From: an uncultured Alphaproteobacteria bacterium
GTDB lineage: Bacteria; Pseudomonadota; Alphaproteobacteria; RF32; CAG-239
Length of the DNA stretch: 64,000 nt
Reading direction: 5' to 3'
Assembly: GCA_944390315.1 (NCBI GenBank)
Contig: CALXPO010000007.1
Location: 6,252-70,251 of the forward strand
Of this stretch, positions 28,137 through 43,762 are shown piece by piece. Position 1 is the first letter of the stretch. Each line of letters begins with the position of its first letter. A program made the translations under genes and the position numbers. The notes beneath the pieces are model-generated. The model was not told where the DNA came from and searched no databases. It was given only the letters and a program-made list of their open reading frames with translations.

Positions 28137-28274
28137 AACAAATACCTATGCAAACCAAGTAATGCGCCCAGCATAACATAAAAACTCACCCTCGGCAAGA
28201 ATCAAATAAAGCGCATAAAAAAACACTTGATTTTAATTTAATATTTGTGTAGATAAATAAAACGAACAAACGAT

Positions 28275-28350
28275 AGGGGTATAGCTCAGCTGGTAGAGCA
28301 TCGGTCTCCAAAACCGAGGGTCGTGAGTTCGAATCTTACTGCCCCTGCCA
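28275..28350 (+). tRNA. trnW: tRNA-Trp (anticodon CCA), CCA-3' encoded
   Basis: Hand-folded cloverleaf: acceptor AGGGGTA/TGCCCCT, D arm GCTC/GAGC, anticodon stem TCGGT/ACCGA with loop CTCCAAA, T arm GTGAG-TTCGAAT-CTTAC, discriminator G and CCA. 76 nt. Confidence 0.95.
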
Positions 28351-29853
28351 AAAAAATGAAAAACCGGTTGAGAGCAGCATCTCAACCGGTTTTCTTATTG
28401 AAAACAAAGGATTTTTTCCGTTCATACAGATGTTCGAAAAAATCAATTTTAAAATCTTTCGTTTTTCATCAAGATTCGAACTTTTGTAGATATTTGGAAG
28501 CTTAGACATCAACAATATTAAGTCTTTCAAGCTAATTAAGCTCTTATGAGCAAGACTGCTGTAATTGCTTAATTCGTTGTTGATTTTTTCCTTTTCTTTT
28601 AGTAATTCTTCTAATTTTTTATTATATAAATCCATAGTAATACTCTTTTCGCCATTCTCTTCACTACCCAAAACCAAGTCAACCAACTTCATTTCTTTAT
28701 TTTCAAGCTGTGTCAATTTTGTTAAAAGTAATGTCCGTTGTTGCCGATCCAATTCATGGCATTTCTTCAATTCTTTTTCGATATCCTTAATGGCTTTTTC
28801 ATACCACTTAGGCTCAGTTTTAGCCAGTTTACGCAAGATCTTGTCAACCTCTGCATCCAGAACCTTCTCATTAACATAAGAGCCTTTACATTGCGTGCAA
28901 AACAGATAACGGTGTTGTCGCTGTTTACCTTTGAAATCAGGTGTTAGCAATTTGCCGCAACAAGAGCATCTTGCAATGCCCTTGTATACGTCTTCATTTT
29001 TACGTTTTTTGGTGTTGAGTCGAAGACCCAACACCTCCTGACACTTATCAAACGTAGCTTTATCCGTTAACTTTGGGTATTGGTGCGGATAAAGTTTACC
29101 ATGAAACCGCATAAAACCATAATAAAATGGGTTTGACAACATATCACGTATTGTCTGTGTATGTGCTTTATTACAGCCTTTTGTGCGGAATCCCCATTCG
29201 TTGGCTTTACGCACTAAATCTGCTAATGTATAAACCCCTGTTGCACATTCCGTAAATAATTTGCGCACAATTATACCCATTTCAGGGTCTTCAACAATCG
29301 TTGCTTTATCAAATTCATCACGGGCATTTTGGTAACCAACAATGGCATAATGGGGAAATTTCCCCATTTTCGCCATTTTTTCGAAACTACGCTTAACATT
29401 GTCTGAAATACAGTTTGTGTAGTTTTCGGCTAATAATATGAATAAATGATATGTTAATAACTGACTGCTACTCGAATCTTGTGTCAACACCTGATTTTCC
29501 GTGTTAAAGTGCAATTCAACTTTTCCATCACGGCGCAATCCGTCAAGTATCGGCACTTCGTGGAAACTGCGCTGAAGTCTGTCGACCTTGTCACAAACAA
29601 TTGCGACACATTCCTTTTGTGCTTTTACAAAATTCAACATTTCATAAAACTGTTTGCGCTCCCCACGAGTTGAGCTTTCCACAATGGAAAATTCCTTTAT
29701 AACTTTCAGCCCTCTACACTCGCAATATGCTTGTAAACGCGAAAGTTGAGCGTCGAGGGAATAACCATCTTCCTGATCTTTTGATGATACTCTGGTTAAA
29801 ATAACAGCCTTTACGGCCGGTTTATAATTATTAAAGGTACTGTATTTTGTCAT
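28336..29853 (-). CDS. Large serine recombinase
   Basis: N-terminal resolvase domain (AVILTRVSSKDQEDGYSLDAQ...IVCDKVDRLQRS), a recombinase domain, the zinc ribbon CSCCGKLL...CTQCKG and a C-terminal coiled coil. The last 15 nt overlap the tRNA-Trp 3' end. Confidence 0.9.
   Translation of the reverse strand: MTKYSTFNNYKPAVKAVILTRVSSKDQEDGYSLDAQLSRLQAYCECRGLKVIKEFSIVESSTRGERKQFYEMLNFVKAQKECVAIVCDKVDRLQRSFHEVPILDGLRRDGKVELHFNTENQVLTQDSSSSQLLTYHLFILLAENYTNCISDNVKRSFEKMAKMGKFPHYAIVGYQNARDEFDKATIVEDPEMGIIVRKLFTECATGVYTLADLVRKANEWGFRTKGCNKAHTQTIRDMLSNPFYYGFMRFHGKLYPHQYPKLTDKATFDKCQEVLGLRLNTKKRKNEDVYKGIARCSCCGKLLTPDFKGKQRQHRYLFCTQCKGSYVNEKVLDAEVDKILRKLAKTEPKWYEKAIKDIEKELKKCHELDRQQRTLLLTKLTQLENKEMKLVDLVLGSEENGEKSITMDLYNKKLEELLKEKEKINNELSNYSSLAHKSLISLKDLILLMSKLPNIYKSSNLDEKRKILKLIFSNICMNGKNPLFSIRKPVEMLLSTGFSFFWQGQ
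28362..28394 (+). terminator. Terminator after tRNA-Trp
   Basis: AACCGGTTGAGA-GCAGCA-TCTCAACCGGTT gives a 12-bp perfect stem followed by TTT. It lies inside the 3' end of the recombinase ORF on the opposite strand. Confidence 0.7.
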
Positions 29854-33095: not shown

Positions 33096-33425
33096 TTAAT
33101 ATTCATCAGCAAGCATAACCGTCAAAACGCGATTAGTGATTGTTTCGTCGCTCGGGTCTAGGCTGAGGTATTGATACTCAACGTCGTAATAATCAATTTT
33201 CCAAAAATAAGTTATGCCGTCAACGTCGAATGCACCAAAGTCATGCTCGCCGTTCGGATCGTTGTCTTTATTAAAATTGCTAAAATTGCGGACTTTTTCC
33301 ATGATCTCAAGCTGTTTATCTGTCGGCAATTTGGCAACTCCGCGCGTTATTAAAACCCGACCGCCGGTAAAATTTTGCCGCAAATTATCGTTTAGCTCGC
33401 GTATTTTCTTAATTTTCGTGTCCAT
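33096..33425 (-). CDS. DUF3768 family protein
   Basis: IRELNDNLRQNFTGGRVLITRGV...NDPNGEHDFGAFDVDG..YFWKIDYYD...TNRVLTVMLADEY closely matches the DUF3768 pattern I recall from alphaproteobacterial plasmids and ICEs. ATG 33425 is preferred; the ORF extends to 33479. Confidence 0.8.
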   Translation of the reverse strand: MDTKIKKIRELNDNLRQNFTGGRVLITRGVAKLPTDKQLEIMEKVRNFSNFNKDNDPNGEHDFGAFDVDGITYFWKIDYYDVEYQYLSLDPSDETITNRVLTVMLADEY

Positions 33426-33695
33426 TTTGCACCTTCCATTTAAAACAGAAAGAGCCGGAACTGCTTCCGACCCTTTCATTAAATGTGTTAAATTTCTTCT
33501 TTCTTCGCATTTTTTGCCCTTTTTATTATTTTATAATATCCACCCTACAAGAACTCAAGCGAAGAATGAGTGCTAAATTAATTTAAAAAAAATTAAAGGT
33601 TTAGTAAGTTATCATGAATTAACTTAACAATATAAAAGAGCTGATTACTTTATTTAAGATGTATAAAGATATTTCTGGGGAAAGGATTGAGTTTA

Positions 33696-36296
33696 ATGGT
33701 AGAAATACTAACGGATGGATTGGTTAGAAATGCAATTCAAGGTGTCGGAGGTTGTGAATCCAAAGGATATCCTGATACCCCAAACAAAACTATTAATGAT
33801 GTTACCTGGTACGAACAAAATGGTTATAAAGGAGGTACATCACCAGATCCTATTATTGAAAAGTTGTTGTCTAAAGCATCAAAATCTGGATCTGGTAGAG
33901 AAGGCAAGCCAGAGTTTATAATCTCAACACCAGATTTTTTTGTTGTTTTTGAAGATAAAGATGTCAAGGATGCTAAGCACTCATCCCAAGCAGATATTCG
34001 AGATTATATTGGAAAGGGGTACACAGCTGAACCTTATAAATATTCTATAGATGATGTTCTTCGTTATGTTGAATATCTGAAAACTGAAAAAGATGTTATA
34101 GCTGTTGCCAGTACATCTGATGGAACTATCAAAAATTTTAAAACAACAACTTTTTATATGCCTAAAAACGGTACATGGGATGATTTGCATGTCATTTGTA
34201 ATGGTGGGTATGATGTAGTAATTAAATCTACTACTGAATATAAAAATATCATAGATGAAATTAATGGAATAACCGAGCAAACATATGAACAACTTTATAA
34301 TGAACTAAGTAATTATGTAAATCAAAGTGCCATATTCATGGAAAAAATGGGTGTTGATGCAGCAAATGAACTCCAACTTGTGTCTTTTATTACATTAGCT
34401 CTTTCCAACAGTAAATCTAATCTCTATCGAAATGTTAAGAAATGGTCACAAACAGATTTTGTTGATTCTGTTGAAATTAAAGCACAAGATGTATTGGATG
34501 CTCTTATTGGTAATACAACTCAAGGTATTAGTGGTATTATTCGTACTGTTGATGAGCGCGGAAGAACAGTTTTACCTCAACCCAAATACGAACTTCTAAA
34601 GCAATATGCAGAAAACACTTTTAATGATAATCATATTACTGAACACGGAAAACCAGATAAAGATAATAATCCTACAATAATGAATCTATGGGATACTGAT
34701 AAAAAAGGTAAACCTCGTAAAAATAATTACTTTAAGAAGGGATATGGAACCATTCTTTCCCGTTTGGTTTGTTCTTTATATCAATATGTTACAACAAAAT
34801 ATGATTATTATAAGGATAAAGGTATAGATATTATGGGAGCATTTTATTCATTGCTTTCTCAATTTTACAAGGCTGATGCAAAACGTGGCGTTGTCCTTAC
34901 TCCTACTCATGTAACAGATTTATTTTGTGATCTCGCTGAATTTTTTTCAGAAAACAAACTAACAGAAAAAACAAAAATTTTAGATATTTGTACAGGATCT
35001 GGAGGTTTTCTTATTTCTGCATTACACAGAATTAATGATAATATTGAAAATAATGAAGCTCTTAATGAAGAAAATAAGAAAAAAGCAAAAGATAAAGCTC
35101 GTAAGAATGCACTAATTGGTAATGAATTAAGTCCTAAAATGTTTGTTCTTGCGTATGTAAATATGTTATTTCACCAGGATGGCAGTTCTCAGCTATGTAA
35201 TCACGATGGACTAACACTTCATGATGAAGGAGATTTTAGAGATATTTTTGGTATGGATGATGAAGATTCTTTCCAAGAAAAGGGAGCTGATATTGGCATG
35301 ATAAATCCTCCATATGATGGTTCAGAATATGACCAACTTCAATTTATATCAGCACTGCTATCATATTTAAAAAAAGATGGTATAGGTATTGCAATTGTAC
35401 CTGTCTCAAACCAAGGAAATAGTAGAAATATTGATAAAGCTCAAATTCTTAAAGAACATACACTTCTTGCAAGCATCTTAATGCCATCTAACCTTTTTTG
35501 GGGACCTGCAAATAGTGGAGCTGCTGTTGGAACATGTATTTTAGTATTTAAGGCACACAAACCAAATAATGATTATATTGCAGAGGGAGGAAAGGCTTAT
35601 CTTGCCGATTGGCGTGAAGATGGTTTTAAGGTTATAAACAAACACGGACGTTTTGAAGATAATAATAAATGGAAAAATCCTAAAAATGGTTACCGAAAAA
35701 TGTATCTTGAGGATATGAAAGCTACAATACTTAAGGATTATAATAAATTAAATATTGTAAAAACTGCTTATAGAGAAGCATTTGGAGAAGAGCAACCTGA
35801 CCCTTCTGTAGATTATATACCATCAATGCTGTTTAAGCCAGATATCCATGAGAATGGCATTAAGTCAACATTAGTAGCGGTACATACAAATCCACATGAG
35901 GAAGTTGTTCAACAAGTTTGGTCTAAAGATGGTGTTAGTCCTGATGGGGAAAAGCATCTTTCAGGAGATCCTAAATATTTATATGAATCAGTAAAGAAAA
36001 AAGCGTTAGATAATAATGGAAATATTATTCTAAATAAAAATGGTAAACCTAAAATGGTTACAGTAAAAGTTAAAAAGATAGATGGTGTAGGATTTCCTAT
36101 TCAAGAAACAAAGAAAGAAATTATTTATGATAATGAAGATTGGAACATTTTAAATTATGTTAAAACAGATTATCACGAACTTTCAAATAATGATTTTATA
36201 AAAACGATTAGAAATTATAAGTTATTTCAGTACATGCTTCAGAATAATATGCTTTTTGAAGATATTTCATCTGTAGAAAATCGCGAGGAATCATGA
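33696..36296 (+). CDS. Fused restriction endonuclease / N6-adenine DNA methyltransferase (BcgI-like type IIB/IIG RM subunit)
   Basis: N-terminal GKPEFIISTPDFFVVFEDKD is a PD-(D/E)xK-like motif. MTase motifs are GVVLTPTHVTDLF, ILDICTGSGGFL (SAM binding) and NPPY. A ~240-aa C-terminal extension follows. AAAGGA RBS lies 9 nt before ATG 33696, and the stop overlaps the S gene start (ATGA). Confidence 0.85.
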   Translation: MVEILTDGLVRNAIQGVGGCESKGYPDTPNKTINDVTWYEQNGYKGGTSPDPIIEKLLSKASKSGSGREGKPEFIISTPDFFVVFEDKDVKDAKHSSQADIRDYIGKGYTAEPYKYSIDDVLRYVEYLKTEKDVIAVASTSDGTIKNFKTTTFYMPKNGTWDDLHVICNGGYDVVIKSTTEYKNIIDEINGITEQTYEQLYNELSNYVNQSAIFMEKMGVDAANELQLVSFITLALSNSKSNLYRNVKKWSQTDFVDSVEIKAQDVLDALIGNTTQGISGIIRTVDERGRTVLPQPKYELLKQYAENTFNDNHITEHGKPDKDNNPTIMNLWDTDKKGKPRKNNYFKKGYGTILSRLVCSLYQYVTTKYDYYKDKGIDIMGAFYSLLSQFYKADAKRGVVLTPTHVTDLFCDLAEFFSENKLTEKTKILDICTGSGGFLISALHRINDNIENNEALNEENKKKAKDKARKNALIGNELSPKMFVLAYVNMLFHQDGSSQLCNHDGLTLHDEGDFRDIFGMDDEDSFQEKGADIGMINPPYDGSEYDQLQFISALLSYLKKDGIGIAIVPVSNQGNSRNIDKAQILKEHTLLASILMPSNLFWGPANSGAAVGTCILVFKAHKPNNDYIAEGGKAYLADWREDGFKVINKHGRFEDNNKWKNPKNGYRKMYLEDMKATILKDYNKLNIVKTAYREAFGEEQPDPSVDYIPSMLFKPDIHENGIKSTLVAVHTNPHEEVVQQVWSKDGVSPDGEKHLSGDPKYLYESVKKKALDNNGNIILNKNGKPKMVTVKVKKIDGVGFPIQETKKEIIYDNEDWNILNYVKTDYHELSNNDFIKTIRNYKLFQYMLQNNMLFEDISSVENREES

Positions 36297-37447
36297 TTAG
36301 TGAAACAAACAAAATTTCTAGCAATATCAGTTTATCAGATAGAAAATGGAAAACATTTAAGATACCATCTCTTTTTAATGTAACAGCAGGTGTTTATTAT
36401 AGTGATTCAGAATATAATGAAGGAAATACTCCTTATGTATCTGCATCCGCTGAAAATAATGGCATAGGTAAGTGGATAGATATAAAAGCTGATTTTGCAG
36501 GAAATATGATTATAACAGGAAAAATTGGTTGTGTAGCTTTTTATCAAAAAGATCCGTTTTGTGCTACTAGTGATGTTAATGTTCTTATTCCTAAATTCAA
36601 TATGAATGAATCCGTAGGTATTTTTATTGTGCGGATGATTAATTCTAACAATTTTAAGTGGGATTATAATAGACAATGTCGACAAGGAGACATGAAACGC
36701 ATGTCTATACAGCTTCCTATTAATTCTAGTGGAGAACCAGATTATCAATTTATGGAAGATTATATTAATTATATTAAAAATCAAGCAGATATCACTGATT
36801 TGATAGAGATTGCAGGCGATGAATCTCCAGAGAAACTTAGATGGTTAAATAATAATATTGATATTGCTGATTTTAAAAAATTTTTAAAAAGCTCTAATGA
36901 TATGAAAATCCAAAACTCGACTATTCATAAAAATAATAATTTATCCAACTTATCCAATAAAAAATGGAAAGAATTTAGATTAGCTAACTTATTTAATTGC
37001 AGGATGGGAAATGGTATTGACGCTTCAAAAGTTACAGTTTCGGATACCTCACAAATAAATTATGTATCCCGTAGCAGTAATAATAATGGAATAATAATGA
37101 AAGTTGATAAAATTGATTCTTATGAACCATACGAAGCAGGAAAATTAACATTAGCATTGGGTGGAGAGTACTTAGGTAGTTGTTTTGTACAACCCGAAGA
37201 ATTTTATACAGCACAAAATGTTGCGGTGCTAGAATGCAATGAAGAAATATCCTTAAAAGCAAAACAATTTATTGCAACAATGGTGCGTAATGAAGCTAAA
37301 ATAAAGTATTTTGCCTTTGGACGAGAATTAAATACCCATTTTAAAACCGATTTTACAATTCCTTTACCTGTGGATTCTAAAGGAAATCCTGACTATCAAT
37401 TCATGGAAGATTATATTAACCAAATCGAGAATAATTTAACACTTTAA
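36293..37447 (+). CDS. Restriction-modification specificity (S) subunit with two target-recognition domains
   Basis: Duplicated architecture with conserved spacers GEPDYQFMEDYINYIKNQ and GNPDYQFMEDYINQIENN, each following a variable TRD-like half. Translationally coupled to the RM gene. Confidence 0.85.
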   Translation: MISETNKISSNISLSDRKWKTFKIPSLFNVTAGVYYSDSEYNEGNTPYVSASAENNGIGKWIDIKADFAGNMIITGKIGCVAFYQKDPFCATSDVNVLIPKFNMNESVGIFIVRMINSNNFKWDYNRQCRQGDMKRMSIQLPINSSGEPDYQFMEDYINYIKNQADITDLIEIAGDESPEKLRWLNNNIDIADFKKFLKSSNDMKIQNSTIHKNNNLSNLSNKKWKEFRLANLFNCRMGNGIDASKVTVSDTSQINYVSRSSNNNGIIMKVDKIDSYEPYEAGKLTLALGGEYLGSCFVQPEEFYTAQNVAVLECNEEISLKAKQFIATMVRNEAKIKYFAFGRELNTHFKTDFTIPLPVDSKGNPDYQFMEDYINQIENNLTL

Positions 37448-37501: not shown

Positions 37502-38560
37502 TTACCCCTTCAAAATGTAGTATGTGCCTTTGGTGGAGCCTTGTTTTTCAAGCAAGTCCTTTTTAACCAGATTTTGTACCGTTTTTTTGACGGTTTCGCT
37601 GTTTTTGCTTAACGTTTCCGCCATTTCTGCCACCGACCAATTTGTTTTTTCTTCAAATAGGTCTAAAACAGCTTGCTCGCCCTTAGTAATTCGGGTTGAG
37701 TCTGCTTTTATGGCAAAAGCAATTTTATCCTCTAAGTGCCGTTTCTGCTTAGCAAGCGAGGTAATAAAAAATGTCAGCCACGGCTCATAATTTACCTTAT
37801 CGCTCCATATTGTCTTTTGCGTAGCGCGCAAAGCTCTGTAATAGGCGTCTTTGCTTGCCTCAATAATTGATTCAAGCGATGAATAAGGCATATAATTATA
37901 GCCATGTTGTAGCATAAGCAAGGTCGTTAATGCACGTGACATTCTACCGTTGCCGTCTGTAAAAGGGTGTATAGATAGAAAATGCACAACAAACACGCCA
38001 ATAGTGATAATCGGGTGGAAATAGCCGTCGTTAAAGTTTACATTCGTCCAATTAACAAGCTCTTGCATTAAACGCGGTGTGTCAAACGGCGTGGCTGTTT
38101 CAAAAATCGTGCCAATCTCTTTGCCATTAGCATCAAATGCTGCCACGCGATTTGAATCTTTTTTATATTCGCCGCGATGATGCTCGTCTTTGTCAGAATA
38201 TGAAAGCAAAATTTTATGCAACTGCCGAATGTAGTTTTCTGATAAATTTATTTCTTTGTAATTTTCAAAAATCGTTGAGACTAAATCGGCATAACCGGCG
38301 ACTTCTTGCTCATCGCGCGTTTGAAAAGATTTTTTGCTGATGCGGTTAAAAACTGCTTCAACCTCTGTATCGTTTAGCTTATTTCCTTCAATACGATTAG
38401 AAGAGCCGATAGATTCAATCGTAGCAATGCGTTTCATGGCTTTTAATTGCTCCGGCTTAACCTTAATACCGCCGCTGTTAAACGCGCCGTTAAACGTGTC
38501 AATTTCTGCTATTTTCTTGAGCATATCGGGGGTAATTGTAATATCTGTCATATTGGGCAT
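37502..38560 (-). CDS. Fic family protein (class II, N-terminal inhibitory motif) with C-terminal winged-helix domain
   Basis: The Fic active-site motif HPFTDGNGRMSRAL, the N-terminal SNRIEG matching (S/T)xxxE(G/N), and a C-terminal wHTH-like VKKTVQNLVKKDLLEKQGSTKGTYY. Confidence 0.9.
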   Translation of the reverse strand: MPNMTDITITPDMLKKIAEIDTFNGAFNSGGIKVKPEQLKAMKRIATIESIGSSNRIEGNKLNDTEVEAVFNRISKKSFQTRDEQEVAGYADLVSTIFENYKEINLSENYIRQLHKILLSYSDKDEHHRGEYKKDSNRVAAFDANGKEIGTIFETATPFDTPRLMQELVNWTNVNFNDGYFHPIITIGVFVVHFLSIHPFTDGNGRMSRALTTLLMLQHGYNYMPYSSLESIIEASKDAYYRALRATQKTIWSDKVNYEPWLTFFITSLAKQKRHLEDKIAFAIKADSTRITKGEQAVLDLFEEKTNWSVAEMAETLSKNSETVKKTVQNLVKKDLLEKQGSTKGTYYILKG

Positions 38561-39268: not shown

Positions 39269-39298
39269 CAGATATTTATAATAAGTTTGGAGGTCAAA

Positions 39299-39898
39299 AT
39301 GTCGATAGGTAAGCAAGCAAAGGTCTTAACCGATAAACAGCAAAATTTAACAATGACGCACTTGGCAAATACGCGCTATCCGCTACGCAATAAAATTATA
39401 TTTTTGCTTAGCTTCAAAGAGGGCTTGCGCGCTAAAGAAATATCAAAACTTGCTTGGGGTATGGTGTGCAACTCCGACGGCAAAATTGCAGATGTCATCA
39501 ATTTAAGCAACAATGCAAGCAAAGGTAAATATTCGGGGCGCATTATACCAATGCATAAAGAGCTTAAAATTTTGCTTGCAGAGATGCTGGCAGAAAAGCA
39601 AAACGACGAATATTTCAGTTTGGACAAGCCTGTTATTGCGACCGAGCGAGGGGAGCATACGACACCGCAAGTTATCGTAAACTTCTTCTACAATTTATAT
39701 AAGACAATCGGCTTTAACGGCTGCTCGTCGCATAGCGGTCGGCGCACATTTATTACAAACGCGGCAAAACATATAAGTTTGGTCGGTGGCACACTTAATG
39801 ACGTACGTATGCTTGCCGGTCATTCATCGCTTGCAACTACCCAACGCTACATTGCTTACGACACCGAGGCACAACGAAAAATTGTTGAGATGAGTTAA
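39299..39898 (+). CDS. Tyrosine recombinase, catalytic domain only (~199 aa)
   Basis: Catalytic signature: GLRAKEI (Arg I), HSGRRTF (HxxR), LAGHSSLATTQRYI (His/Tyr). GGAGG RBS lies before ATG 39299. Only about 40 aa precede the first catalytic Arg. Confidence 0.85.
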   Translation: MSIGKQAKVLTDKQQNLTMTHLANTRYPLRNKIIFLLSFKEGLRAKEISKLAWGMVCNSDGKIADVINLSNNASKGKYSGRIIPMHKELKILLAEMLAEKQNDEYFSLDKPVIATERGEHTTPQVIVNFFYNLYKTIGFNGCSSHSGRRTFITNAAKHISLVGGTLNDVRMLAGHSSLATTQRYIAYDTEAQRKIVEMS

Positions 39899-39904
39899 AC
39901 GTAA

Positions 39905-41812
39905 CTATATAACTTCTAGAAATGATGCTTGTTCATCAGCGAGAAATGTAGCAGAACCTTTAACTTTATCATATAATTTAAACAAACGTGCTTTTGCTCT
40001 ACTTATAACAACACTATATGTCATTGGTCTTATAACTAAGGAGCCATTATCTTCTGTTTTTTCCCCTTCTTCACCAATAGCAATAGTTTTCCCTAAAACG
40101 TATGCTACTGTTTTTTGGGTATTTGAATTGATCAACCCTTTATTTTTCAACTCTTTATAATATTTCCAGGGTTGATTCTTCTCATCTGTATTAATTGGTA
40201 CTGTCGGTTTTTTTAATTCTATAATAACCAACCTTTCAATACCATTTTCTTCATTATTTTCATCATAGGAAGGTCGTGAATAAAAATTACTGCAATTTCC
40301 ATCAGGCAAAACGACAAAATCTGGTCTATTTTTAGATACACCATCTACTTCTGAACATTTCATAAACTTCTTTATAACTGTTGCTATTGCTTGGTTAGAT
40401 GTATATTCTATTGATTCAAATTCAGGACCAAAAATCCATAACCCTCTATCAAACAATGGTTGCAGTTCATGTACTTCATCCGTATCATCCCTATTAATTT
40501 TTCTTTCTAATTCATTTATTAATTTAATTCTAAATTCAAGCTCATCTAAAACAAGTTTAGTGGCTTCTATTCCCCATTTTTCAAGTATTTTGGAAAGGTT
40601 GTCATAATCAGCAGAAGACATTTGTGACAGCAATTCAACTAATTTATATTTCGACTCAGATTTTTCCATTTTCAATAAAACATCAGAAACTTTTTCCAAA
40701 TGCTTTTCTGACAAGGAAGGACATTGAGTTATAATTTCATGTAATGTTTTCTTCCATTTATACGCATTAACAGTTCCTATTTGTGAAAGCGTATTTCTTC
40801 TTTCGGAAGCTAAATTATCAACAGTTTCTTTTGCTAAGGCTATACTTTTTCTATTAATATAATTTGATATTTCCTCATTAACTAACTCTTGTAAGTCCTT
40901 AATACTGTCTTGTACAAAACCAGACCAATCAGGAAGCACAAAATTTCTTAAATCATTATCTCTGTCTTCTGTCGTTGCTTTAACAATAAAACCTAAAGAT
41001 TTGGCTTCCTTAGTTCTCTTATCTATATCTAAATCTCCATTCCAAGAAAACTCCCCAACTAAACGTCCGTTTACCTGCCAAGCAATGCCATGTAATTTGG
41101 ATGTAGCATCTGATTGTCCCGTTTTAATAACAAGTATCTCAATATTCTCTTTTTCAATATTTATTGTGTCAACTTTATTTTGCTTTATATCTCTAAAAGA
41201 AACTTTATGGTTGTTTACATAAACCTCAAATGTTGGATCAAATAAAAATCTCGTTCCAAGCTCATCAATAATATTTTTTTCTGGTATTTCTATATTTTGT
41301 GATTTTTCCACAAAAATACCCGTTCCTTGATTTTGGATAATATTTTTTGTTTCTATTTTAGTCACATTAATAGGTATATCCTTAAATGACTTTATTACTT
41401 TATATCTATTAGATTTATCGTTATCCTTGGTTTTCGTTTCAACTTGATAAGAGAAGTTGAAACAAAAGGCAGCGTGTCTTCCTCTTCCATTCTTTCCAAA
41501 TACCCTTCTTTTGTGTACTTCTCCGTTATATATGACTTCTACAAAAAATCCTTGCTTTTTAGAGCGATCATAAGAGTATGTTAACCACCTTTCTTGAAAT
41601 TCCTTATCAGACATGCCATACCCATTATCAGTAATACTAAAATGTGGGTCATCCATAGAAGGCCATATTATATCAACTCTCGTTGCCCCAGCATCCCATG
41701 CATTAGCTACTAATTCAACAATAGCGGTCACAGGATCTTTCAAAATTTTATTTCCAACAACATCCGTTAAAAATCTATCAGTTTCATAAGCAAATGACAA
41801 TTGTTCATTCAT
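39905..41812 (-). CDS. GHKL (HATPase_c/MORC-like) ATPase fused to a C-terminal PD-(D/E)xK (DUF4263/Shedu-like) nuclease domain
   Basis: N-box IVELVANAWDAG (aa 31-42), G1 box ITDNGYGM (aa 60-67) and GKNGRGRHA (aa 106-114). The C-terminus reads LWIFGPEFE...NRPDFVVLPDG...RLVIIELKKP...QPWKYY (aa 458-552). Confidence 0.75.
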   Translation of the reverse strand: MNEQLSFAYETDRFLTDVVGNKILKDPVTAIVELVANAWDAGATRVDIIWPSMDDPHFSITDNGYGMSDKEFQERWLTYSYDRSKKQGFFVEVIYNGEVHKRRVFGKNGRGRHAAFCFNFSYQVETKTKDNDKSNRYKVIKSFKDIPINVTKIETKNIIQNQGTGIFVEKSQNIEIPEKNIIDELGTRFLFDPTFEVYVNNHKVSFRDIKQNKVDTINIEKENIEILVIKTGQSDATSKLHGIAWQVNGRLVGEFSWNGDLDIDKRTKEAKSLGFIVKATTEDRDNDLRNFVLPDWSGFVQDSIKDLQELVNEEISNYINRKSIALAKETVDNLASERRNTLSQIGTVNAYKWKKTLHEIITQCPSLSEKHLEKVSDVLLKMEKSESKYKLVELLSQMSSADYDNLSKILEKWGIEATKLVLDELEFRIKLINELERKINRDDTDEVHELQPLFDRGLWIFGPEFESIEYTSNQAIATVIKKFMKCSEVDGVSKNRPDFVVLPDGNCSNFYSRPSYDENNEENGIERLVIIELKKPTVPINTDEKNQPWKYYKELKNKGLINSNTQKTVAYVLGKTIAIGEEGEKTEDNGSLVIRPMTYSVVISRAKARLFKLYDKVKGSATFLADEQASFLEVI

Positions 41813-42032
41813 TATAGAGCTCTTTCATAACATATAACTAGTTGCACTTTATAACATTCCGAAAATATATCAATGTTTTTTTATGGCATTTTCAACTTGT
41901 TTATTTTATAATTTTTTACATTTACTTCATAGAAACATGTCAAAAATATCTCTTCAATTCAACAAAAGCAGATGCTATCGCATCAAGATCATCGTCTGTA
42001 AAGGTTCTAATGACACTATGTTGGTGCTGCCA

Positions 42033-42066
42033 ATAAAAAAAACCGCTCAAAAGAGCGGTTTTTTTA
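42033..42066. terminator. Bidirectional hairpin terminator
   Basis: AACCGCTC-AAAA-GAGCGGTT gives an 8-bp perfect stem flanked by an A-run and a T-run. Confidence 0.7.
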
Positions 42067-43706: not shown

Positions 43707-43762
43707 CATTTAACCTAATATTTGTGTACTGGTCTTTATACATTTAACGTAATATTGGTGTA
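43707..43762. repeat. Imperfect 22-bp direct repeat (period 34 bp)
   Basis: CATTTAACCTAATATTTGTGTA (43707-43728) and CATTTAACGTAATATTGGTGTA (43741-43762). Confidence 0.6.

Follow-up and report, generated by a model that had tools for sequence, protein, structure and literature searches.

Proteins that join an N-terminal GHKL (Bergerat-fold) ATPase to a C-terminal nuclease are known from earlier studies as paraMORC3 and as a class of Shedu proteins, and we compare them here with a gene of an uncultured Alphaproteobacteria bacterium (GenBank assembly GCA_944390315.1, contig CALXPO010000007.1, positions 6,252 to 70,251 of the forward strand). The stretch analysed, 64,000 nucleotides in all and called the window below, contains on its minus strand, at 39905..41812 (stop codon included), a complete gene for a GHKL-ATPase/PD-(D/E)xK nuclease fusion of 635 amino acids (aa), recognised from the list of open reading frames (ORFs), its homologs and an AlphaFold2 (AF2) model. 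This window protein is probably a stand-alone immune nuclease of the GHKL-Shedu superfamily (Shedu type I-D / paraMORC3) that is carried on a horizontally acquired defence island.

The architecture was described in 2008 by Iyer, Abhiman and Aravind (PMC2292703), who defined paraMORC3 as a GHKL plus S5 module followed by a C-terminal nuclease of the restriction-endonuclease fold (E-D-ExK, with a RecB-like QxxxY), often encoded by stand-alone genes without conserved neighbours and found sporadically in Proteobacteria and Bacteroidetes. More recently, Gu et al. (bioRxiv 10.1101/2023.08.10.552793; Mol Cell 2025) listed in Shedu type 1D the combination of a HATPase_c_3 GHKL domain with an Hsp90/MORC-like 'N24' middle domain. 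Finally, in 2025, Adams, Blokesch and colleagues (PMC12137116) characterised VcSduA, a GHKL-DUF4263 protein encoded on VSP-II of WASA-lineage Vibrio cholerae, which by a direct, not abortive, mechanism protects E. coli from T1-like phages and V. cholerae from phage X29; the substitutions E27A (ATPase) and K557A (nuclease) each abolish defence. Given these three reports, the fusion cannot be called undescribed, as was suggested in the preliminary description of this gene, and judged by sequence what is new here is only a subfamily distinct from that of VcSduA.

Relationship to VcSduA, paraMORC3 and Shedu

The first 399 aa of VcSduA were taken from the bioRxiv supplement, and the full protein (AWB73059.1) and its family were recovered by homology search. 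Like the window protein, VcSduA is a single-gene system (673 aa against 635 aa) in which a GHKL ATPase, a middle domain, a helical region and a PD-(D/E)xK nuclease follow in the same order, and both genes are carried on a genomic island. By contrast, the sequences themselves are far apart. BLASTP of the window protein against VcSduA-family proteins was not significant: no E-value fell below 0.01, and the alignments were confined to short co-linear patches at DxGxG and ExK. Motif I reads FEAVINS in VcSduA and VELVANAWDAG in the window protein, and the AN[ASG]WDA form that is typical of the window family was found in none of the 557 listed matches of the authors' VcSduA model. The catalytic glutamate (E) and lysine (K) are separated by 530 residues in VcSduA and by 496-504 in the window family, and the latter matches HATPase_c_3 whereas VcSduA does not, having no match to the Pfam SduA_C and HATPase models at E up to 1. 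In sequence terms, the window family and the VcSduA family are therefore distinct.

A deeper relationship between the two is visible when family alignments are compared by hhalign (probability 87%, E 3.7e-6), which yielded 396 co-linear columns running from the middle domain to the end of the nuclease, against E 0.027 for a reversed-profile control. This alignment pairs D498, E532, K534 and Q547 of the window protein with D527, E555, K557 and Q575 of VcSduA. The GHKL cores of the two families align separately (E 1e-5, 30 columns), and the equivalence of E33 with VcSduA E27 rests on the position of motif I (ExxxN) in both alignments. By profile comparison, then, the window protein is a remote full-length homolog of VcSduA. 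The VcSduA nuclease lies closer than that of the window family to a profile of the canonical Shedu domain, which we built from 28 PF14082 proteins (E 9e-6 against 4e-3).

Compared by description, the window family and paraMORC3 agree in architecture, in the E446/D498/E532-x-K534 residues, in the absence of a conserved neighbour and in a spread over several phyla, which for the window family takes in Proteobacteria, Bacteroidota, Verrucomicrobiota and other phyla; all the features by which paraMORC3 was described are thus found in it. With the GHKL class of Shedu type 1D, the window protein shares HATPase_c_3, an Hsp90/MORC-like middle domain and a nuclease that is likely, by remote homology, to be of the Shedu type. 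Canonical Shedu SduA, an immune nuclease (B. cereus 8TI8/8TI9; E. coli SduA), likewise consists of a single protein in which a regulatory domain at the N-terminus is joined to a PD-(D/E)xK domain. Its motifs follow a comparable order, E...(hydrophobic W/F)...D...ExK...Q, and it resides in defence islands, but unlike the window protein it has no ATPase.

The link to Shedu is best seen through an intermediate. Using tblastn with the window protein, we found on the Sinorhizobium meliloti plasmid accessoryA a 586-aa protein (WP_088217884.1, hereafter H9) with E 6e-17 over 94% of the query, which aligns with the window-family profile by hhalign at E 3.4e-33 over 544 columns and passes the Pfam thresholds of both HATPase_c_3 (E 1e-25) and SduA_C (27.9 bits for a cut-off of 27, E 3e-6). 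Because H9 passes both thresholds and is homologous over its full length, the window protein appears to be a diverged member of the GHKL-Shedu superfamily, and its nuclease domain is likely to be remotely homologous to DUF4263, though strongly diverged. H9, the type 1D example found here, is only about 22% identical to the window protein and stands just above the SduA_C threshold, whereas the window family stands below it. The resemblance to the DUF4263 nuclease of Shedu that was first proposed for this gene consequently holds as a remote one, through H9, while the direct comparison remains sub-threshold. The H9 gene itself (locus L080, accessoryA 91195-100889) lies on a conjugative plasmid in the company of a DEAD/DEAH helicase, a tyrosine recombinase and an IS21 transposase.

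When a profile of the window nuclease domain was searched against 1.84 billion representative proteins, 629 clusters were matched at E up to 1e-3. All of the best 150 of these 629 were proteins of about 630-700 aa with the same architecture, or fragments of such proteins, and none of the 150 presented a bridging architecture; nor was VcSduA, sought by its E/K spacing, found among the listed matches. The nuclease domain thus seems essentially private to the GHKL fusion. As this domain is private and diverged from DUF4263, the trigger or the mode of DNA recognition may differ from those of canonical Shedu and VcSduA, and we put forward only tentatively, as a possibility that deserves mention, that the window clade could form a separate, undetected branch of ATP-gated Shedu-like nucleases. 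Since PADLOC does not call the window subfamily as Shedu, the VcSduA model does not list it and Pfam SduA_C scores its nuclease domain below threshold, censuses of defence systems under-count GHKL-Shedu nucleases, and the family, which is large and phylogenetically widespread, offers a second lineage, divergent from VcSduA, with which the mechanism of the latter can be compared.

Domain architecture and conserved residues

The ORF and all the motifs listed in the preliminary description were recovered in our analysis. The N-terminal part contains IVELVANAWDAG (aa 31-42), ITDNGYGM (aa 60-67) and GKNGRGRHA (aa 106-114), and the C-terminal part HELQPLFDRGLWIFGPEFE (aa 448-466), NRPDFVVLPDG (aa 495-505), RLVIIELKKP (aa 527-536) and QPWKYY (aa 547-552); these matches are far beyond chance. 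Conservation was read from an alignment of 40 full-length homologs of 40-83% identity from many phyla, in which the ATPase residues E33, N37, D40, D62, G64, G66, G106, G109 and G111 and the C-terminal residues E446, D498, E532, K534, Q547 and Y551 are invariant. The same alignment was the input of an AF2 model of the full protein (mean predicted local distance difference test, pLDDT, 80.4; about 90 over aa 10-300), which divides into four parts, an ATPase (about 1-195), an alpha/beta domain (about 196-300), a helical region (about 305-440) and a C-terminal alpha/beta domain (about 445-620).

The GHKL ATPase domain (aa 1-195; 41228..41812, minus strand) is defined by its invariant motifs, by Pfam and by matches of profiles in the PDB. 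Motif I comprises E33/N37/D40, motif II D62-x-G64-x-G66 and the ATP-lid G106-x-x-G109-x-G111. HATPase_c_3 matches aa 29-153 (E 5.3e-17, 62.6 bits for a cut-off of 25), and a PDB search with the full-length profile retrieved N-terminal domains of HtpG, Hsp90 and MutL, the best 60 matches all being GHKL proteins. The window protein accordingly displays the set of features of the GHKL superfamily, namely motifs I and II, a glycine-rich lid, an above-threshold HATPase_c_3 match and a transducer/middle domain that follows, and the GHKL ATPase originally proposed for the N-terminus is upheld by HATPase_c_3, the PDB profiles and Foldseek alike.

The ~330-aa middle region with a helical segment that had been reported earlier does contain helices, and it can be refined into two parts. 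The first is a GHKL-associated middle (transducer/S5-like) alpha/beta domain (aa 196-300; 40913..41227, minus strand; pLDDT about 90), with the invariant residues H241-G-x-A-W...R250...G253...W257...D264-x-R266. It is identified as the middle/transducer domain because Foldseek against the PDB aligned it together with the ATPase, over about 400 columns, to TRAP1/Hsp90 (E 5e-13) and MORC2 (3e-11). The second is a helical linker or clamp region (aa 301-440; 40493..40912, minus strand), in which DSSP assigned helices over 305-439 of the AF2 model; it has a conserved C364 and a conserved helix K419...D423-E424...R428, and hhalign places it co-linear with the equivalent region of VcSduA.

The PD-(D/E)xK nuclease domain (aa 441-635; 39905..40492, minus strand) carries the invariant series E446...D498...E532-x-K534...Q547-x-x-x-Y551. 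The arrangement D...ExK...QxxxY is a RecB-like signature. In the full model, D498 is located just ahead of one beta-strand, E532-x-K534 at the end of another and Q547/Y551 in the next helix, and this predicted arrangement is that of the PD-(D/E)xK core. A model of this domain alone gave weak Foldseek matches in the PDB (best E 0.036), nearly all of them PD-(D/E)xK nucleases, including the BspD6I small subunit, McrC, the FokI cleavage domain, Mus81, DdmD and LmuA; this result speaks for the general PD-(D/E)xK fold only. Taken with the invariant motif, it agrees with the nuclease assignment made earlier for the C-terminus.

The most conserved segment of the family, ELQPLFxxGLWIFGPEFExIExTSN (aa 446-473, window 40394-40477), lies at the start of this domain. 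It is of low confidence in AF2, with a block-mean pLDDT of about 60-80 in the full model and values mostly below 50 in the domain-only model, and may be a mobile or regulatory element in view of these predictions. By analogy with the motif II loop, which is sequestered in B. cereus Shedu, it may act as a conformational switch through which the GHKL cycle is linked to the assembly of the nuclease's active site.

Proposed immune function and its alternatives

By analogy with VcSduA, the window protein most likely protects its bacterium from phages or plasmids. We infer dimerisation, ATP gating, a DNA substrate and an immune phenotype from VcSduA and from the GHKL engines MutL, Hsp90, MORC and topo VI-B. 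In the mechanism that we propose, the protein would form a homodimer, and binding of ATP to the N-terminal Bergerat domains would close an N-terminal gate, which together with the middle and helical domains would clamp DNA; E33 would serve as general base, N37 would bind Mg2+, D62 would contact the adenine and G106-G111 would form the lid. The conformational cycle would then license cleavage of invading phage or plasmid DNA at the PD-(D/E)xK site (D498, E532, K534), and ATP hydrolysis would reset the enzyme. Because no methylase partner is conserved, discrimination between self and non-self would have to rest on the form that the DNA takes, for instance free ends or replication intermediates as proposed for canonical Shedu, or on some other trigger.

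The distribution of the family was considered together with its surroundings. Full-length relatives of the window protein fall into at least 1,538 clusters (90% clusters), bear only the names 'ATP-binding protein' or 'hypothetical protein' where a source gives one, and were confirmed at at least 580 sites in species-representative genomes. The matches listed come from Alpha- and Gammaproteobacteria, Bacteroidota, Verrucomicrobiota, Planctomycetota, spirochaetes, one cyanobacterium and one Methanoperedens archaeon, and the closest among them (83% and 74% identity) belong to metagenome-assembled genomes of uncultured Alphaproteobacteria. Eight full-length homologs are plasmid-borne, several of these plasmids being conjugative. 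Copies carried by phages were sought in phage records, where only N-terminal GHKL-like fragments were found. One of these, a 'hypothetical protein' of Yersinia phage P37 (MT239398.1 / NC_070907.1, 1693-2109), matches the GHKL N-terminus alone, at 33% identity (aa 15-153, E 3e-12), and may represent a free-standing GHKL-like fragment in a phage.

For the neighbourhoods, ORFs were called in 79 loci and the four neighbours on each side of 68 recognisable homologs were clustered. No partner gene or operon is conserved, the most recurrent neighbour family being present in 4 of the 68 loci, and these four are congeneric Algoriphagus species with one common island; a conserved partner was accordingly rejected. 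The window and its 83%- and 74%-identity relatives have no adjacent gene in common, only a distal homolog of the large serine recombinase and a DUF3768 gene. As close relatives share no neighbours, the gene moves as a single-gene cassette, and the claim that it stands alone, made from the window by itself, extends to the family.

The neighbours are nevertheless of a recognisable kind. Among the 150 ORFs at positions +/-1 and +/-2 of the homologs, 496 PADLOC models were matched at E up to 1e-5, including Type I restriction-modification (RM), MADS, PbeA/SspE, GajB/HEC-06, DRT, LmuB and canonical SduA, and Pfam recognised in the same ORFs ResIII/DEAD, UvrD, GmrSD, Mrr and TIR domains and integrases. 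In comparison, 150 control ORFs of the same loci, each at a distance of 7.5 kb or more, matched 120 PADLOC models, with lower family counts. The expected enrichment of defence genes near homologs is thus supported, with the caveats given below for the control. A canonical Shedu gene (PADLOC SduA 1.7e-132; B. cereus SduA 8TI8 also matched) lies directly 3' of the homolog in Rhizobium leguminosarum (L038:11841-13364) and in a Mesorhizobium strain (L055:11907-13148), so that Shedu genes of the GHKL type and of the canonical type do occur next to each other; in the Mesorhizobium strain the copy is apparently frameshifted near its C-terminus.

Several results weigh against an immune nuclease of the Shedu type. 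The isolated C-terminus scores 17.3 bits with Pfam SduA_C (PF14082, DUF4263; cut-off 27, E 5e-3), about the same as its sub-threshold match to HSDR_N_2 (E 2e-3), and SduA_C is matched at E below 1 by 8 of the 40 family members (best 8e-4). PADLOC (2.0), which the preliminary description had proposed as a check of whether the gene is already classified, made no Shedu/SduA call for the window protein. The hhalign comparison of the window nuclease with the canonical Shedu profile is marginal (E 3.9e-3, probability 8.5%): it aligns only the ExK strand and the C-terminal helix, with a reversed control at 0.44 and other controls reaching 0.006. The domain-only AF2 model of the C-terminus is mediocre (pLDDT 66.5), no SduA chain is present in the top 50 of its Foldseek matches, and a PDB sequence search with the profile of this domain gave no match at E up to 10. 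The control for the enrichment is crude, owing to redundant PADLOC models, unequal residue totals and heuristic ORF calling, and in the accessible literature there is no experimental test of a member of the window subfamily.

Among other explanations, the one that survives best would have the protein act mainly in competition between mobile elements, by exclusion of plasmids or of integrative and conjugative elements or by an addiction-like stabilisation of its island, and not against phages. The homologs on conjugative plasmids are in line with this, as are the serine and tyrosine recombinases and the DUF3768 gene in the island of the window copy and the serine-recombinase homologs in the islands of loci L001 and L002; nuclease-based anti-plasmid systems exist, and DdmD was among the weak fold matches. 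We nonetheless hold it unlikely as the principal role, since direct protection against phages is documented for the validated sister VcSduA, both in E. coli and in the native host, and the neighbours of the homologs are dominated by anti-phage systems. Because phage and plasmid targets are not told apart here, a role between elements is in any case a variant of the immune nuclease and not a true alternative to it.

A GHKL restriction endonuclease (REase) of Type II, similar to BbrUII/HgiDII, is a poorer candidate. Such an enzyme would be paired either with an unlinked methyltransferase (MTase) or with the nearby 869-aa N6-adenine MTase, whose gene overlaps by 4 bp the next one, for a specificity (S) subunit with two target recognition domains; this pair (33687-37447, plus strand; PADLOC/Pfam) lies 3.6 kb from the fusion gene. 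The NCBIfam model of the BbrUII/HgiDII restriction enzyme (NF050001) does match the window protein at E 2.4e-25 and the REase_II models of PADLOC at E 4e-11, and paraMORCs were placed mainly in RM systems by Iyer et al. (PMC2292703). The NF050001/REase match is, however, limited to the GHKL N-terminus (aa 31-211, 89.2 bits against a cut-off of 550): the BbrUII/HgiDII enzymes, of about 660 aa, have an N-terminal GHKL ATPase related to that of the window protein (profile positions 25-210), but show no similarity to it outside the ATPase, and they work with a cognate methyltransferase, none of which is conserved here. No MTase recurs beside the homologs in the 68 loci, and the same authors found nuclease-bearing paraMORC3s to be stand-alone (PMC2292703). 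As for the nearby pair, PADLOC places it closest to Type IIG REase-MTase fusions (4.5e-38) and to Type II specificity subunits (1e-31) and not with classical Type I systems; the MTase has its own S subunit, the Fic and recombinase genes intervene on other strands, and the 83%- and 74%-identity relatives do without these neighbours. Pairing with this MTase was rejected on these grounds, and a Type II enzyme of this kind is improbable altogether.

A housekeeping factor of DNA repair or chromosome maintenance, a MutL/MORC-like ATPase with its own nuclease, is hardly credible, for although the GHKL N-terminus resembles MutL/PMS2, the gene stands alone with no RM partner and Iyer et al. (PMC2292703) speculated on a repair-type role for stand-alone paraMORC3 genes, the distribution is patchy across phyla and includes one archaeon and plasmids, the position is non-syntenic even among close relatives, the gene lies in a low-GC (guanine-cytosine), recombinase-flanked island, the neighbourhoods of the homologs are rich in defence genes, and the MutL model TIGR00585 reaches 34.7 bits for a cut-off of 180 over aa 23-74 only (about 50 residues), with no MutL C-terminal domain.

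The gene and its island

The 635-aa ORF (39905-41812, minus strand) begins with ATG. In its own 5' region (41813..42032, minus strand), which was read directly and scanned for consensus elements, a Shine-Dalgarno-like AAAGAG was read about 8 nt 5' of the ATG, and the scan returned a promoter-like site at 41873-41846, which is weak, such sites being as common in shuffled sequences. Upstream of this region, a bidirectional intrinsic terminator (42033..42066), A8-CCGCTC-AAAA-GAGCGG-T8, has a folding free energy of -21.3 kcal/mol (z -4.9), a stability reached by none of 200 shuffles, and it insulates the fusion gene from upstream transcription. On the other side, a tyrosine-recombinase gene (39287-39898, plus strand; Phage_integrase E 9e-16) converges on the fusion gene and ends 6 bp from its stop codon. 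Both the terminator and the convergent recombinase had been noted in the preliminary description and could be confirmed. The recombinase has only 203 aa, a catalytic domain without the N-terminal core-binding domain. Since only 6 bp and no terminator separate the two genes, their convergent transcripts would overlap.

The fusion gene lies in a low-GC stretch of the window at about 31-44 kb (GC 0.30-0.34, against 0.37-0.44 outside), bracketed by core genes, those to the left encoding ABC transporters and those to the right being LptG, gmk and YicC. Its contents comprise the large serine recombinase next to a tRNA-Trp, DUF3768, the Type IIG-like MTase with its S subunit, a SoFic-like Fic protein and the short tyrosine recombinase. 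The gene of the large serine recombinase (505 aa; 28336-29853, minus strand) overlaps the 3' end of the tRNA-Trp gene (28275-28350). One copy of an imperfect direct repeat of 20 nt lies just upstream of tRNA-Trp (28232-28251), and two more copies (43709-43728 and 43743-43762) lie close to the right-hand border of the low-GC stretch; these repeats could be the ends (att) of an integrative island of about 15.5 kb, or could have arisen by chance in AT-rich DNA.

Two further elements of the island may relate to defence. The N-terminal part of the MTase, about 370 aa, has no Pfam match and includes a D..E.K-like string, STPDFFVVFEDKDVKD, which suggests, from sequence, that the genes at 33687-37447 form an RM system with a fused nuclease, of the BcgI/Type IIG-like kind. 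The gene at 37502-38560 (minus strand) encodes a Fic-domain protein with a C-terminal winged-helix domain (PADLOC SoFic 5.4e-49) and is a second candidate defence gene of the island. To the left of the RM genes, a DUF3768 protein is encoded at 33096-33479 (minus strand; E 5.6e-33), and the island of L002, the relative with 74% identity, contains a copy of it that is 52% identical.

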